Below, in pieces: positions 8,244 to 61,108 of a DNA stretch of 64,000 nucleotides. Where the stretch lies: the NCBI GenBank assembly GCA_031414955.1, contig JANOQV010000184.1, positions 96,001 to 160,000 of the forward strand. The letters run 5' to 3'. The notes beneath the pieces were generated by a model. The model was not told the DNA's origin, searched no databases, and saw only the letters and a list, made by a program, of their open reading frames with translations. The DNA comes from Pedosphaera sp. Lineage in GTDB: Bacteria > Verrucomicrobiota > Verrucomicrobiia > Limisphaerales > SIBH01. Each line of letters starts with the position of its first letter. The first letter of the stretch is position 1. Both the position numbers and the translations under genes were made by a program.

Positions 8244-8387
8244 GCCTCACGCCAGGTCCGCCCAGGACGCAAAGGATGGAACCAATGGCATGATCGCAGT
8301 GGCCTGGAAGGTCTCACCAAATGGTGCGGACCATTCGGGCCGGCGAAGATAAATTCCTTTGCGTCCTTCGCGGACTTGGCGTGAGGC
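8244..8387. repeat. Intergenic inverted repeat of the CGCAAAG 9-mer type, with no passenger gene
   Basis: 8244-8276 and 8355-8387 are about 30/33 complementary. Confidence 0.75.
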
Positions 8388-8422
8388 ACAACCGTTCTCG
8401 ACGGCATCGTCCCGGCACAAAA

Positions 8423-8519
8423 CCGGTCTGAAAATTCGGCCCCGGAGTGCGCCCGGGGACGGACGCATTCCGGGGCCAGCGACCTGCGCCGTCCAAACGA
8501 CTTTTCAGACAGGCTCTAA
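8423..8519. mobile_element. MITE-like element related to 60877-61054 (opposite orientation, internally shortened)
   Basis: CCGGTCTGAAAA ... TTTTCAGACAGG ends; internal GGAGTGCGCCC/GGACGCATTCC hairpin; one end overlaps the response regulator stop codon. Confidence 0.65.
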
Positions 8520-11527: not shown

Positions 11528-12817
11528 TCAGCCAAACTTGCGCTTGAGCCGGACCGCATCAAAAGCCTGTCGGTGCCCTGAGGTCATGCGTTCGAAATCA
11601 GGCGTGCCATCCGCGCGCCGGGGCCAATCGCCACTCGTAGCAGTCGAGGTCACGAGCCTCTGATCTTTTCGTTCCTCACGCGCGGCTGGCTTTGAACCGC
11701 CAATCGGATTGTTCCGCACTTCCCCCGTGGCGCGTTTGGTCGCGCTGCCGTCGTAGCTCATGGACTGGTCGGTGAGTTCAAGGTCTTTCTCCAACGGGCG
11801 ATGCGGCTGGATGCCTTTGCCTTGCAGCACGCCGTGGTAGGCGCGCACGGCTTCCTCGGGCGAGAGCTTGCCATCGGTGATCAGGCGGAGCATCTCGATG
11901 AACGCAAGCTGGTGCTCGGCATTGTTGATCTTGCGCCCGAAGAGCGCCACGCGCGCGCCATACTTCTGCGCGTCATGGATGAGCCGGAAAGCATCGTAAG
12001 TCGTGCCCGCGCCGCCGCCGAGAATGCCGACCACAAGGTTCGGATCGTACTGCGCCAGCTCCTCCATCGCCTTGGGACCGTGATAGACGATCTTCAAGAA
12101 CACAGGTCGTCCTGTGTCGGGCACGCCCGCGAGCGTGCGGAGGATGTTGTCGTTGATGAACTCGCCGAGCTTTTCCGGCGCGATGCCGGAGGCGACGTTG
12201 GGATCAAATATTTCCAGGAAGTGCCGGAATTGCTTCCGCTCCGCCTCTTCGCGAAATTCCTTGTACCAAAGCAGCGCCTCGCGGTCCTGTTCCAGCTCGT
12301 TGACGAACGTGATCGAGTAGAGGCCGAGATTCGCGCCCGGAAACTCACCACCGTCGCGCTCACACTCGATCTCGCCGCACTGGATGTGGTCAATGGCGGC
12401 ACTGCGGAAAGGCTGGCTCGGCTCGCGCGTGTAAGCACCGTGGCGTGCGGCCCACACATCGGTGGTGTCGTTCGCGCGAGCCGCCGGCGTGACGTGGGAG
12501 TTCTTGAACAGCCCCTCCTTGATGGCGAGCTGCTCGTTCACGTAGGCGGACATGAGCATGATGTCGATCAGCCCCTGGTGCGTGACCTCGCGAATGATGT
12601 CGAGGAACTCAGGCAGGTTGCGGTAGCCAAACTCGTCGCGGTTCCAGACCTCGGGCGAGAACTGCGCCGGTCTCTTTCCGCGCCCCGACAAATACTGTCG
12701 CGGCCCCGGCGAGCGCACGCCGAACGCCATGTCCGCGTCCTTCGCGTCGGCAATGATGAACGCCCGCGAGGCGCGGTTGGCTTTGATTTCGGCGAGCTTG
12801 GTGTCGAGAGATTTCAT
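11528..12817 (-). CDS. BMC-locus protein, probable class I aldolase-like TIM barrel
   Basis: Last gene of the BMC operon; 'FLKIVY', 'ILGGG', 'ALFGRKI' resemble DhnA-type aldolase motifs. Confidence 0.6.
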   Translation of the reverse strand: MKSLDTKLAEIKANRASRAFIIADAKDADMAFGVRSPGPRQYLSGRGKRPAQFSPEVWNRDEFGYRNLPEFLDIIREVTHQGLIDIMLMSAYVNEQLAIKEGLFKNSHVTPAARANDTTDVWAARHGAYTREPSQPFRSAAIDHIQCGEIECERDGGEFPGANLGLYSITFVNELEQDREALLWYKEFREEAERKQFRHFLEIFDPNVASGIAPEKLGEFINDNILRTLAGVPDTGRPVFLKIVYHGPKAMEELAQYDPNLVVGILGGGAGTTYDAFRLIHDAQKYGARVALFGRKINNAEHQLAFIEMLRLITDGKLSPEEAVRAYHGVLQGKGIQPHRPLEKDLELTDQSMSYDGSATKRATGEVRNNPIGGSKPAAREERKDQRLVTSTATSGDWPRRADGTPDFERMTSGHRQAFDAVRLKRKFG

Positions 12818-12820
12818 GGA

Positions 12821-13273
12821 TTAGCCGCGAAAGAACGCAAAGAGCGCAAAGAAGCCGAAAAGAAACGAAGCAATCCGGCTTTCCGGCGAACGTGATGCCT
12901 TGTCGCTCATCGCAAACTTCTTAATCTCGAATCGGTAGGAGCCAAAGTTGATGAGCAGTCCGTGCTCAATGCGCGCGGACTTCAAGTAACCAAGCAGTTG
13001 CGCCACATGGTCATCGGCGATGGTCTTGGCCGCTTTCAGTTCGATGATGATCCGTCCATCAATCAACAGGTCGGCAAAATACTCGCCGATGACCGTGCCG
13101 TCCTCATCGCGAACAGTCAGTGGACTTTGCTGCTTCACATCGAAGCCCAGCTTTCGCAACCGGTGGGCCAGCGCATTCTCGTACACCTTCTCCAAGTGAC
13201 CTTGGCCGTGATAGACGTGGATGTCGTACGAGGTCTGCCGCACCACATCGCACAGTTCCATGATGTCTTTCAT
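12821..13273 (-). CDS. GxxExxY protein (PD-(D/E)XK nuclease-like)
   Basis: 'GHLEKVYENAL', 'ADLLIDGRIIIELKA', 'AQLLGYLK', 'GLLINFG'; AGGAAAGG upstream of ATG 13273. Confidence 0.92.
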   Translation of the reverse strand: MKDIMELCDVVRQTSYDIHVYHGQGHLEKVYENALAHRLRKLGFDVKQQSPLTVRDEDGTVIGEYFADLLIDGRIIIELKAAKTIADDHVAQLLGYLKSARIEHGLLINFGSYRFEIKKFAMSDKASRSPESRIASFLFGFFALFAFFRG

Positions 13274-13379
13274 TTGAACCTTTCCTAGTTTGTCATTTTT
13301 AAGCTGCGAAAGAACGCAGAGAACGCAGAGACAATTTCTGTTCCCGTCTTTCTTTGCGCTCTTTGCGTTCTCTCGCGGC
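12824..13379. repeat. 30-bp terminal inverted repeats bracketing the GxxExxY gene, plus a third arm copy at 13303-13331
   Basis: GCCGCGAAAGAACGCAAAGAGCGCAAAGAA (12824-12853) versus TTCTTTGCGCTCTTTGCGTTCTCTCGCGGC (13350-13379), 29/30 complementary. Confidence 0.9.
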
Positions 13380-13384
13380 AAAAT

Positions 13385-14311
13385 TCATGTTCGCACCTTC
13401 GCCAATGTCTCCTTGAGCGCGCGCGCGGACGCCTGCAAGCCCATCAACTCCTTCGGCCACAATTTGATCTCCACATGCTTCAGCACGCCGCCGCGACCGA
13501 CGACGCTCGGCACGCTCAGGCAGATGTCGCGAATGTCGTAGGCGCCTTGGACAAGCGAGGAGATTGGGAGCAGCGCCTGTTTGTTCAGCAGCACGGCGTG
13601 AATCACATCACGGATGGCGACACCCACGGCCCAGCCCGCGCCGCCTTTGCGCTTGATGACTTCCGCGCCGCTGCCTTTGGTGCGCTCGAAGACGGCGTTC
13701 TGGAAACCGGGCGAACATTCTGGCAAGCCGGTGAGCGGCAAGCCGTTCACCGCCGCGCTCGACCAAATCGGGAGCATCGAATCGCCGTGCTCGCCGAGGA
13801 TGAGCGCCTTCACCTGCGTGGGCGCGAGCTTGAGTTCCTCGGCGATGAACGAACTGAAGCGCGAGGTATCGAGCATCGTGCCAAGTCCATAGACTTGCTG
13901 CCAAGGCAGGCCGAGCCGCTGCACGGCGAGTTGCGTGAGAATGTCCACCGGGTTCGAGACCACGAAAACCTGCGCGTCCTTCTTGAAGCCCGCCGCCTTG
14001 ATGCTGTCGAGGATGCCGACGAAGAGCGCCACGTTGCGGTTGATGAGGTCGAGGCGCGATTCATCTGGCTTGCGGCGCAGGCCGGCCGTGATGAGGAAAA
14101 TGTCGCTGTCTGCGGCACGAGTGTAGTCACCCGCGTAAATCTTCTGGTCGCCACAGAACGCGCTGCCATGCAACAAGTCGAGCGCCTCGCCCTCGGCCAG
14201 ATCCTTGTTCGCGTCGAGGATTTGCAGCTCGGCCACCAGCCCGCCGCATTGCAGCGCAAACGCCGCGCAAGAACCTACACGGCCACCGCCGCCGATGATT
14301 GTGACTTTCAT
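13385..14311 (-). CDS. Lactate/malate dehydrogenase family protein (BMC-associated)
   Basis: 'IIGGGGRVG', 'TAGLRRKPDESRLDL', 'VVSNPVD', 'GTMLDTSR', 'LGEHGDS'. Confidence 0.92.
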   Translation of the reverse strand: MKVTIIGGGGRVGSCAAFALQCGGLVAELQILDANKDLAEGEALDLLHGSAFCGDQKIYAGDYTRAADSDIFLITAGLRRKPDESRLDLINRNVALFVGILDSIKAAGFKKDAQVFVVSNPVDILTQLAVQRLGLPWQQVYGLGTMLDTSRFSSFIAEELKLAPTQVKALILGEHGDSMLPIWSSAAVNGLPLTGLPECSPGFQNAVFERTKGSGAEVIKRKGGAGWAVGVAIRDVIHAVLLNKQALLPISSLVQGAYDIRDICLSVPSVVGRGGVLKHVEIKLWPKELMGLQASARALKETLAKVRT

Positions 14312-14324
14312 AAATTGTTTGGTC

Positions 14325-14819
14325 TCACTCGCCAGCCTGTTGCAACACCTGCGCCACGAAGGACGGGGCCAGATGAAATCCATTCTGCGCCAACTGCGTG
14401 AGCCAGGGCCGTAGCGCGTCAATGCGTCCGGCTTGCTTCCCTTGCATCAGCAGGCCCACCACGCCTCGGGTGCGAAGGCCCAATTGACGCGCGGCTTCAC
14501 GTCCATCCGCTTCATCCATCAGCAGAAAATCCGGCCCGGTTTCTGCGGCGAGGGCAATGGCTTCAGCTTCTCCGTCGTGGAGATTCTGCCGCAGCGTGCG
14601 AACCAAGGGCGCGTTGCCCGGCGTCACGACTTTCAACCAGCCTTGTTTCGCGGCGTTCTGTACATCATTCACGACCTGATGCGACTTACCCTGCACAATC
14701 ACCTCGCGCCACACCGCGTCCGGCACGCGCACTTCCGAAAAGAACAGCGGGAGCAAGGCGAACTGCCCAATCGCACTGAGGTGAATCAGCACTGAGGAAT
14801 CACTGACGGCGGTTGGCAT
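14325..14819 (-). CDS. DUF3368-type PIN-domain protein (putative toxin)
   Basis: 'VSDSSVLIHL', 'VPDAVWREV', 'LHDGEAEAIALA', 'LLMDEADGR'. Confidence 0.85.
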   Translation of the reverse strand: MPTAVSDSSVLIHLSAIGQFALLPLFFSEVRVPDAVWREVIVQGKSHQVVNDVQNAAKQGWLKVVTPGNAPLVRTLRQNLHDGEAEAIALAAETGPDFLLMDEADGREAARQLGLRTRGVVGLLMQGKQAGRIDALRPWLTQLAQNGFHLAPSFVAQVLQQAGE

Positions 14820-15057
14820 CTTGGCAATCCTCCGCCAGATCAGCCCCGCCGTAGTGGCGGGGGATGGCGCGTTTGCCGAGCACTGCTTCCCATTCCAACC
14901 GCGTCAGACCGGCGAGGGTGCAGGCTTTGCCTGACGCGAGCAGATTCTGAGTGTAGAGCGCCACGGCCAGTTCCAGCCGCAGGCGCGCTTCGATTTCCTG
15001 CGGCGGGACACGCACGCTGGAGAGCACATCGGCGGGAATTTCTAGTGTGACACTCAT
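14800..15057 (-). CDS. UPF0175-family protein (putative antitoxin)
   Basis: 85 aa; 'LRLELAVALY...SGKACTLAGL'; overlaps the PIN gene start. Confidence 0.85.
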   Translation of the reverse strand: MSVTLEIPADVLSSVRVPPQEIEARLRLELAVALYTQNLLASGKACTLAGLTRLEWEAVLGKRAIPRHYGGADLAEDCQDANRRQ

Positions 15058-16232: not shown

Positions 16233-16424
16233 GTCCCCGGAGGGGACGAATGTGAATAGCCCCGGGTGCAACCCGGGGTGCGAACCGCAGAGATGCCGCA
16301 ACCCCGGAGGGGTTGAACCCGGCACGTCGCATCACGGTTCAACCCCTCCGGGGTTGAACTCACTCCAAGCACTGCCAACCCCGGGTTACACCCGGGGCTA
16401 TTCACGTCGAAGCCCTCCGGGCTT
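16233..16424. repeat. Composite palindromic element with nested hairpins
   Basis: Perfect 21-bp IR 16299-16319/16336-16356 inside IR 16252-16278/16379-16405. Confidence 0.88.
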
Positions 16425-41772: not shown

Positions 41773-42794
41773 AAAAAAAGCCCCAAGCTCCAAGCTCCAA
41801 CCTCCAGGGAAGATCCAAGCTTCAAGCACCCAGGGGATGGCGCGTCGCTTGGGCAGGGAGCGCCGAGCATCGCTCGGCTTTGGGCATAGCCACGCACGTT
41901 CGTGCCGAGCGATGCTCGGCGCTCCGTTCTTCAGTGTGGTGCCGATTGGATCTTGGAACTTGGTGTTTCTCTGGTGCTTGGAGCTTGGTGCTTGGTGCTT
42001 TTCTCCTGTCCGCTTCAGCGATCTGGGCGGCGACCAACCCAACCAACACCGCTTCACGCAACATCGGCATCGAGGGCAAGGTCACCGTGGCCCTGCCCAA
42101 GCCGGACTACAAACCGCGTCCGCTCGACGACCGCACGGAATTAATTCTGCGCATCGAGAGCGTGAAGCCGTTGTCCAACGGCCAGCACAACTACGAGTTC
42201 TTCTACATGGGCCTCGAACAGGGCGCGTACAAGCTCGCGGACTTTCTCATTCGCCCGGACGGCACGCGGCCTGATGAACTGGGCGATCTGCGCATCCAGG
42301 TGCGCGCGATGCTGCCCGAGGATCACGACGGCAAGCTCAACACCTACGTGCCACGACTGTTTCCGTTCGTCGGCGGCTATCGCGCGGCGCTGGTCATCCT
42401 CTGCGTGCTCTGGGTGGGCGGCATCGCGGCTTACATTATCCTCACACGGAAAAAGCGCGTGGTGGCCGCGCCGGTGGCGGTGGTGCCCGAGCCATCGTTC
42501 GCCGAGCGGCTGCGTCCGCTGGTGGAAGCGGCAGCGGAAGGAAAACTCTCCGTTCAAGACCAGGCCAGCCTGGAGCGGCTGCTCATGGGCTACTGGCGGG
42601 AGAAGCTGAACTTCTCCGGTCTAGGCGTGGCCGAGGCGCTGGCGCGGCTCAAAGCCCACGCTGAAGCGGGCGACTTGCTGCGCGCGCTGGAGCGCTGGCT
42701 GCACCAGCCGGGCGGAGCGACGAAGGAAGAGGTGGCGGTGCTGTTACAGCCGTATCGGCAGGTGTCGGCGGCGGTCCAAGGAGGGGCAGAGTGA
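41769..42794 (+). CDS. Bat-operon-type membrane-anchored protein whose N-terminus is encoded by a palindromic element
   Basis: GTGA overlap with DUF58; signal-like 'LVLGAFLLSASAIWA'; internal TM; start uncertain. Confidence 0.7.
   Translation: MKKKPQAPSSNLQGRSKLQAPRGWRVAWAGSAEHRSALGIATHVRAERCSALRSSVWCRLDLGTWCFSGAWSLVLGAFLLSASAIWAATNPTNTASRNIGIEGKVTVALPKPDYKPRPLDDRTELILRIESVKPLSNGQHNYEFFYMGLEQGAYKLADFLIRPDGTRPDELGDLRIQVRAMLPEDHDGKLNTYVPRLFPFVGGYRAALVILCVLWVGGIAAYIILTRKKRVVAAPVAVVPEPSFAERLRPLVEAAAEGKLSVQDQASLERLLMGYWREKLNFSGLGVAEALARLKAHAEAGDLLRALERWLHQPGGATKEEVAVLLQPYRQVSAAVQGGAE
41776..42002. repeat. Heptamer (CCAAGCT-type) hairpin with a nested perfect 22-bp REP-like inverted repeat (41857-41878/41904-41925)
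   Basis: Outer arms about 41776-41830 and 41946-42002; inner GGAGCGCCGAGCATCGCTCGGC and its exact reverse complement. Confidence 0.9.
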
Positions 42795-42938
42795 AGATCC
42801 AAGATCCAAGATCCAAGATCCAGAGAAGCGCCAAGCTCCAAACACCAACCGACGGCGGGCAGCACCGCGACACGAAAGCACGTTGGATCTTGGTGTTTGG
42901 ACCTTATCTGGATCTTGGATCTTGGATCTTGGATCTTT
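42794..42938. repeat. Heptamer (GATCCAA)n / (TTGGATC)n hairpin at a gene junction
   Basis: AAGATCCAAGATCCAAGATCCAAGATCC versus GGATCTTGGATCTTGGATCTTGGATCTT. Confidence 0.92.
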
Positions 42939-60876: not shown

Positions 60877-61054
60877 AGAGCCGGTCTGAAAAGTCGCCTG
60901 GAGGCAAAGGTCGCCGGTCCCGGAGTGCGCCCGTCCTCGGGCGCAGCAACGTGCGAAAGTCTGGGGAGGTGGGGTTTTCCAACGCGCCCGGCGTCAGCGC
61001 ACTGCTGCGGCCGAGGACGGGCGCACTCCGCCAGCGAGTTTTCAGACCGGCTCT
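60877..61054. mobile_element. MITE-like element with perfect 16-bp TIRs and a nested REP-like pair (60922-60948/61003-61029)
   Basis: AGAGCCGGTCTGAAAA / TTTTCAGACCGGCTCT. Confidence 0.8.
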
Positions 61055-61108
61055 GAGCCTGTCGGCCGAGACTTGGCGCGCGGGCCGGAGGCTGCTATTC
61101 CTCCGCCG

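Follow-up and report, generated by a model that had tools for sequence, protein, structure and literature searches.

A GxxExxY gene between tandem-unit inverted arms at an operon junction of Pedosphaera sp., a probable selfish DNA element rather than RNA switch

Several described systems resemble, each in some respects, the locus considered here. In REPIN-RAYT systems (doublets of repetitive extragenic palindromic, or REP, sequences and their REP-associated tyrosine transposases), as portrayed in the cited sections of PMC3337134, a single-copy or few-copy enzyme gene lies between inverted repeats on the chromosome, stacked arrangements occur, and many gene-less doublets of the same repeat are found in intergenic DNA. 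The intervening sequences (IVSs) of 23S rRNA genes that bear an open reading frame (ORF) are, in the portions cited for Coxiella (PMC4990558) and the Candidate Phyla Radiation (PMC11270868), about 0.4–0.55 kb long, with a small ORF in the loop of a 28–30-bp stem and a patchy distribution. Free-standing homing endonucleases such as mobE of phage T4 (PMC2790892, in its cited part) are promoterless nuclease genes between conserved genes, with empty alleles and possible co-conversion of flanks. The MITEs of bacteria (miniature transposable elements with inverted repeats), such as Correia, ERIC and RUP, figure in the relevant passages of PMC2229807 and PMC10969869 as small intergenic inverted-repeat elements with long transcript stems, while the heptamer repeats of Xanthomonas/Nostoc and of Beggiatoaceae (PMC4692102 and PMC4679880, again in part) are short tandem units near the stop and start codons of aligned genes. 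These features have counterparts in a 556-nt segment, here called the cassette, in which a GxxExxY gene lies between inverted arms of tandem units. It lies in a 64,000-nt stretch (the window) of Pedosphaera sp. assembly GCA_031414955.1, contig JANOQV010000184.1, positions 96,001–160,000 of the forward strand. The minus-strand order is ldh (13385–14311), a 567-nt insert holding the cassette, and a 429-aa ORF (11528–12817), and the surrounding microcompartment operon, which we take to be of the Planctomycetes-Verrucomicrobia type, also encodes an aldehyde dehydrogenase, EutN/CcmL and a class II aldolase. Nearest homologues point to a host in Verrucomicrobiota. Comparison across genomes shows gene and arms travelling as one unit, which has inserted at many junctions and repeatedly at some of them, and the cassette is probably an element of selfish DNA, not an RNA switch.

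Two sets of homologues were compared, with shifted positions as controls: a close set (the best 80 of 459 genome matches, 77 after three were dropped for short flanks) and a distant set (the 30 top family matches from a sample of the phylum, 28 after two were dropped). An inverted repeat scoring at least 14 occurs at 57 of the 77 close homologues and at 4 of 275 control positions; among distant homologues the figures are 22/28 and 0/55. The arm motif brackets 64 of the 77 close homologues. An arm matches its own partner at 22.2 of 27 positions and the arms of other loci at 15.6 (0/5000 permutations; 25 loci, not independent by kinship), and arm type tracks the protein tree, which is built on few columns and has many open forks. 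Two other near-full-length paralogues in the window's genome each have their own arms. A divergent paralogue in the same genome (contig C117, 12808–13089) has a different upstream repeat.

The subfamily is found in Verrucomicrobiota, Planctomycetota, Nitrospirota, Chloroflexota, Acidobacteriota and others. The 61 loci of the subfamily with both neighbours nearby represent 46 junction types, among them nuoJ–nuoK, gatA–gatB, pyruvate-dehydrogenase-type and restriction-modification pairs; neighbours were called with a home-made gene finder, for which the genes of the window and 50 neighbours (37 with a Pfam match) served as a check. In simple cassettes the gene usually stops a few bases ahead of the next start. 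An initial sequence-only reading of the window had taken gene and arms for a mobile element with gene-less relatives. The bracketing, the variety of junctions and the empty and filled alleles described below support this, the gene is not syntenic in relatives, and inverted repeats are far commoner around GxxExxY genes than at control positions. No target-site duplication was found, direct repeats of 3–6 nt never exceeding 4 of 25 loci at any end offset. Duplication of a TA target was rejected: the 2-nt repeat seen in 10 of 25 is the palindromic TA, and the other flanks extend as inverted, not direct, repeats. A search of viral contigs and 50,697 phage records gave no relative and one of plasmid records gave 7 in 72,556, and a phage or plasmid passenger was therefore set aside.

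The DNA upstream of the 429-aa gene was collected as one slot from genomes and metagenome contigs. Nine known duplicates were removed, 24 loci have no ldh or aldolase upstream within the stretch, and some near-identical records remain among the 145 alleles, which were classed by script: 66 after ldh (86 loci expected) and 79 after the aldolase (79 expected). Overall, 68 are empty, 26 hold a gene-less hairpin, 15 a toxin-antitoxin pair, 8 GxxExxY from unrelated lineages or a remnant of it, and 28 something else. After ldh the counts are 31 empty, 16 hairpin, 6 GxxExxY, 3 toxin-antitoxin and 10 other; after the aldolase, 37, 10, 2, 12 and 18, respectively. Genomes of the same genus, with Ldh 97–99% identical, carry unrelated 7-mer, 10-mer or GxxExxY inserts. 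The four GxxExxY proteins at the junction of ldh and the 429-aa gene do not form one clade (approximately unbiased (AU) test, p 1.6e-36), nor do the five at gatA–gatB (AU p 7.7e-87). At nuoJ–nuoK, sampled by nuoK, 50 loci comprise 31 empty, 9 hairpin, 8 other and 2 GxxExxY, mixed within one genus, and the carriers do not group as a single host clade (AU p 1e-5). The combination of terminal inverted repeats with filled and empty alleles is that of insertion sequences and MITEs, and tight operon junctions are turnover slots filled repeatedly by unrelated elements. The toxin-antitoxin-type pair, UPF0175-DUF3368, is also present in the window between aldolase and ldh (14325–15057, minus strand), besides filling the slot ahead of the 429-aa gene in the 15 alleles counted above. 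The 429-aa protein itself occurs in 227 of 401 genomes of the order.

Through internal deletion, cassettes decay to hairpins without a gene, to stacked arms and to footprints. One locus (L305) retains the two arms, and the GxxExxY gene between them has an internal deletion that preserves the frame; another (L342) retains both arms and the 5' part of the gene, and a third (L341) is a truncated cassette; partial copies lie on both sides of an intact gene in L163, four hairpins are stacked in L219, L175 has a tail resembling that of the window cassette (37/45 nt), and L257 is an 11-nt footprint. Gene-less tandem-repeat hairpins can thus be decay products of cassettes, and a third arm present at the window locus fits such stacking. 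Twelve gene-less pairs of the window's GxxExxY arm subtype were found elsewhere in its genome, and dispersed gene-less inverted doublets of the gene-flanking repeat are a trait of REPIN-RAYT systems as well. The sequence-only reading had proposed that the cassette and a nearby repeat were an autonomous and non-autonomous pair:

8244–8387, no strand assigned: gene-less hairpin with a different 9-mer arm subtype (30/33)

This repeat is real, but its best ungapped match to the GxxExxY arm is 15/27, which makes it another subtype and not the matching partner, and it sits inside a 418-nt gap rather than tight against genes. The gene-less relatives that were predicted do exist, as the 12 same-subtype pairs elsewhere and not as this hairpin. 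At least six arms occur in 9 of 21 genomes with a close gene and in 13 of 129 others (Fisher p 6e-4, kin not being independent). At two gene-less loci (L004 and L005), from genomes of different families, an identical tract of 166 nt (a 107-nt hairpin insert with 33 and 26 nt of flank), from –140 to +25 around the downstream ATG, stands amid about 88% identity, which fits transfer on short homology.

Other hairpin families are present as well. Gene-less hairpins with 7-mer tandem arms lie at 41776–42006 and 42794–42937 of the window, and a period of 7 is found in 43 of 56 tandem hairpins between co-oriented genes of this genome. Another family is represented at 16236–16421; at an ldh junction elsewhere (L168) arms of this family surround a broken ORF, presumably of the IS200/RAYT transposase type by its motif, the whole lying within a 7-mer hairpin. 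Yet another inverted-repeat family, also dispersed, occurs at 8414–8467, beside the 8244–8387 hairpin, and at 60921–61059. On contigs C48, C95, C169, C174 and C183 of the window's genome, gene-less pairs of the cassette subtype are nested with other hairpin families, often enclosing or enclosed by them.

The encoded protein belongs to the GxxExxY/PDDEXK_3 family, scoring well over curated cut-offs (TIGR04256, 111.4 bits against 35; PF13366, 105 bits against 22). The cited part of PMC3424549 gives PF13366 as a family of unknown function with multiple transfers. Among 93 aligned sequences G25, E28, Y31, E78, K80, Y96, L107 and N109 do not vary, and D68 and Q92 reach at least 90% conservation. 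A structure model (predicted local distance difference test, 92.5) matches BpuSI (Z 8.5, root-mean-square deviation 2.5, 93 residues aligned), 3ijm (Z 8.3), Cas4 SSO0001 (Z 7.9) and Hjc (Z 6.0), and the top Foldseek match is again Cas4 SSO0001 (E 1.5e-4). The modelled fold is the PD-(D/E)XK core with the catalytic motif E28/D68/E78/K80, and the protein is accordingly a predicted nuclease; no single clear nearest relative emerged among PD-(D/E)XK nuclease structures, and sequence searches against solved structures gave nothing useful. With this fold, and with TIGR04256/PF13366 as its only match, it is not an HUH (Y1) tyrosine transposase of the REPIN-RAYT kind. The dN/dS values of 0.02–0.08 (7 of 14 pairs not saturated) point to strong purifying selection on the gene, including its catalytic-type residues.

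Such selection would also be expected of a gene useful to its host, or of a toxin-like one: a defence, repair or addiction nuclease in variable slots, with arms that are regulatory or separate repeats. The family occurs in half of 121 genomes sampled from the phylum, restriction-modification genes account for several of the neighbours, and the UPF0175-DUF3368 pair occupies the same slot in 15 of 145 alleles. We nevertheless regard such an accessory gene as improbable: the two arms co-vary, and do so with the gene as well, decay into remnants is frequent, PADLOC matches are weak and partial (E about 1e-3), and there is no fixed partner gene.

The cassette in the window and its two host genes are made up as follows:

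13385–14311, minus strand: upstream host gene, lactate/malate dehydrogenase (ldh) of the microcompartment operon
13350–13379, minus strand: left (5') arm, three units of about 9 nt, purine-rich on the coding strand, 5 nt past the ldh stop
13303–13332, minus strand: inner third arm, 24/30 to the left arm and its local hairpin partner
13299–13388, minus strand: putative ORF of 29 codons that begins at an ATGA overlapping the ldh stop and spans both upstream arms
13279–13286, minus strand: Shine-Dalgarno-like purine run, 5 nt upstream of the GxxExxY ATG and outside both alternative long stems
12821–13273, minus strand: GxxExxY gene, 150 aa (TIGR04256 111 bits, PF13366 105 bits), predicted PD-(D/E)XK fold
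GxxExxY gene 3' end: stop 3 nt ahead of the next ATG, C-terminal tail encoded by the right arm
12824–12853, minus strand: right (3') arm, 29/30 to the left arm, ending 6 nt ahead of the next ATG
11528–12817, minus strand: downstream host gene, conserved 429-aa ORF without Pfam or NCBIfam match

What the sequence-only reading had described here held up on alignment. The arms 12824–12853 and 13350–13379 pair at 29 of 30 positions (a repeat search extends the pairing to 33 nt at 94%, and the only mismatch of this stem is G-U); their outer ends lie 5 nt from the ldh stop (13385–13387) and 6 nt from the ATG at 12817; the right arm, read in frame, is the C-terminus FFALFAFFRG followed by the stop; and the third copy, 24/30 with the common partner arm, competes for it, local and long stems being mutually exclusive. 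Three-unit 9-mer arrays number 107 genome-wide against 10 after one shuffle, and the 631-nt region folds with z = –7.5; arms and fold are therefore not due to chance. No promoter-like site or terminator was found at the arms of this locus. In ldh the last two codons are not those seen in close relatives. Translation of the right arm supplies the C-terminus in 45 of 77 homologues, as a hydrophobic tail (in the window, 12821–12860, minus strand), and one may speculate that this tail acts as a degradation tag. The GxxExxY frame is open back to the ldh stop (12821–13384, minus strand), and all three genes (ldh, GxxExxY and the following one) are in the same frame at this locus. A meaning for the common frame was rejected: gaps at nuoJ–nuoK occupy all three phases, and the sharing at ldh is therefore taken as chance.

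The sequence-only reading had further suggested a possible RNA switch; in the form considered here, a local hairpin and the long stem would toggle translation of the downstream gene. The two stems share the left arm and therefore exclude each other, the local hairpin forms first in prefix folds and persists until the far arm is synthesised, the long stem covers –36 to –7 of the next start, and 19 of the 77 close-homologue loci have such an inner arm on the upstream side of the gene. Against this, the long stem (duplex energy –57.1 kcal/mol) is ahead of the local one (–40.9) by 16 kcal/mol, and in the equilibrium fold the left arm pairs with the far arm at a probability of 0.99. Two arms only are present in 25/77 loci, and the mirror arrangement, with the extra arm downstream, is equally common (19/77). 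Where it lies upstream, the inner arm makes the better partner in 9 loci and the worse in 8, with 2 ties, and its end is anywhere from 13 to 180 nt from the gene. Rfam gave only sub-threshold matches at the locus, with no group I/II, rRNA or ligand-binding motif, and a conserved alternative structure with RNA-type covariation, as expected of a riboswitch, was not found.

Mismatches within the stems point the same way. A stem selected in sense RNA should show more G-U than A-C pairs, as terminators do, and the terminator-like hairpins of this genome, used as a control, have 13 G-U and 3 A-C. In contrast, 69 GxxExxY stems have 39 G-U and 80 A-C on the coding strand (34 and 67 where the right arm is translated, 9 and 20 where it is not), the distant GxxExxY set has 9 and 11, and 56 gene-less hairpins have 69 of each. 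With a third arm that varies in side, position and strength, and no sense-strand G-U excess, the switch was not borne out and is very unlikely. The roughly 2:1 preponderance of A-C over G-U on the coding strand corresponds to G-T on the non-coding strand; it may reflect folding of the non-coding strand, or selection that weakens the RNA stem.

Intron-like excision of the RNA with religation, restoring a short mRNA junction from ldh to the next gene, was also considered. With the stem formed, the ldh stop and the next ATG would be no more than 11 nt apart, the genome has genes for an RtcB ligase and for RNase III, and tRNA splicing endonucleases appear low in the list of fold matches (Z about 5). 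However, known IVSs are cut without ligation (PMC11270868, in the section cited), neither group I/II nor any other Rfam family matches the locus above threshold, the two genes would already be coupled by translation through the right arm, and the mismatch spectrum disfavours a stem in sense RNA. Excision of this kind is hardly to be expected.

The main rival is that the cassette is an mRNA counterpart of the 23S rRNA IVSs: RNase III would cut the RNA stem and release the gene without religation, the cargo would be a passenger, and the unit would spread passively by homologous recombination between flanking genes. The Coxiella 23S IVS has a similar layout in the cited part of PMC4990558 (428 nt, an ORF, a 28-bp terminal stem, cutting by RNase III), and the ends of Correia elements in transcripts are cut by RNase III according to the passage cited from PMC10969869. 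RNase III is encoded in this genome, PF05635 genes of the same genome have similar tandem-unit arms, as a further likeness to 23S IVSs, the long stem dominates at equilibrium, and cassettes are co-oriented with both neighbours in 75 of 102 cases, compared with 2041 of 3947 background triples. The long terminal stem around an ORF is thus shared with IVSs; the location in an rRNA gene is not, the flanking genes both encoding proteins. Other points tell against this rival: the transcribed strand is not rich in G-U, 9 of 102 cassettes are antisense to both neighbours, passive spread leaves unexplained the strong purifying selection on catalytic-type residues and the entry into new junctions, and RNase III cleavage could be a by-product under any model. 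On balance we consider the IVS explanation unlikely, though worth keeping in view.

The explanation we favour, and to which we would give an even chance, is that the cassette is a selfish mini-element and that its predicted PD-(D/E)XK nuclease, probably through a cut in DNA, starts its copying by host recombination. It occupies an operon junction that is empty or differently filled in relatives, and would be tolerated there because it lacks a promoter, mostly has the orientation of its neighbours and, in this subfamily, is translated through the right arm as far as the next start. The arms would fold back in single-stranded DNA and so mark the ends of the element; the predicted nuclease might nick at or near the arms, or at the empty junction; repair with short flanking homology would then fill the same junction in other genomes, rarer illegitimate events would open new junctions, and gene-less hairpins could ride along in trans. 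The broader version is more tentative, namely a widespread, transposase-free selfish family, made up of a 130-aa predicted nuclease and tandem-unit arms, which inserts at operon stop-start junctions and homes from genome to genome on about 30 nt of flank, with hairpins as its decay products and passengers.

Several points weigh against a self-moving nuclease element. A 130-aa nuclease with no evident recognition domain would have to serve a great variety of junctions, a hydrolytic cut does not by itself join DNA, and the search for target-site duplications was negative. Four-helix-bundle genes (PF05635) of this genome are enclosed by the same architecture, visible 7-mer arms being present at 3 of the 4; PF05635 is not known to have nuclease activity, and the mover may therefore be something other than the cargo. 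In addition, the genome contains 12 matches to Y1 (HUH) transposases, which could move hairpins. Among the 22 arm-rich genomes other than the window's, no close gene was found in 13, and 8 of 21 gene-bearing genomes lack an exact arm pattern. The identical tract of L004 and L005 is one among 462 pairs, with no further such tract in them, stands at a gene-less insert, and may be an assembly artefact, the sources being metagenome bins. At nuoJ–nuoK the cassette tree largely follows the host tree, which fits an old insertion with many losses, and repeated loss may therefore have occurred there. The PF05635 genes of L299, L301 and L302 lie inside inverted 7-mer arrays, each with a different unit.

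If the selfish-element explanation is true, it would mean that mobility can do without a transposase, give the orphan GxxExxY family a function and explain where the abundant tandem-repeat hairpins of bacteria come from; should mobility depend on the nuclease, the cassettes would be a class of mobile element with no recognised transposase. GxxExxY/PF13366 is in any case now tied to a defined DNA unit, from which gene-less tandem-repeat hairpins can descend, and the arms and the empty junction, on both strands, are defined candidate substrates.

No description of GxxExxY genes with flanking repeats was found in the literature searched; supplements and most subscription journals lay outside the search, and an earlier description may therefore exist. 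The mention of GxxExxY in the cited part of 10.1101/2021.01.26.428298 is unrelated to flanking repeats. Compared with the systems named at the outset, as the cited parts of those sources present them, the cassette differs from each in its own way. Its enzyme is of PD-(D/E)XK type whereas RAYT is an HUH tyrosine transposase, its arms are tandem 9–10-nt units whereas REPs are short and self-palindromic, its gene lies between both arms, its gene-less copies arise by internal deletion, and it favours tight operon junctions. Unlike the 23S rRNA IVSs, it is found in mRNA operon junctions, with a predicted nuclease as cargo and mismatches that are not G-U-rich on the sense strand. Unlike endonucleases of the T4 mobE type, it encodes a predicted PD-(D/E)XK core that lacks an evident recognition domain, has inverted arms, and occupies dozens of unrelated junctions in bacterial chromosomes, not phages. 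From the MITEs it is set apart by tandem-unit arms, by the lack of a target-site duplication in our searches and by a presumed autonomous partner with no DDE transposase, and from the heptamer repeats, which are described with a unit of 7 and no cargo gene or autonomous form, by its cargo and its unit of 9–10. The cassette thus fails the defining features of REPIN-RAYT systems (the enzyme), of DDE elements and MITEs (the target duplication) and of rRNA IVSs (the location), yet appears to work like parts of each.

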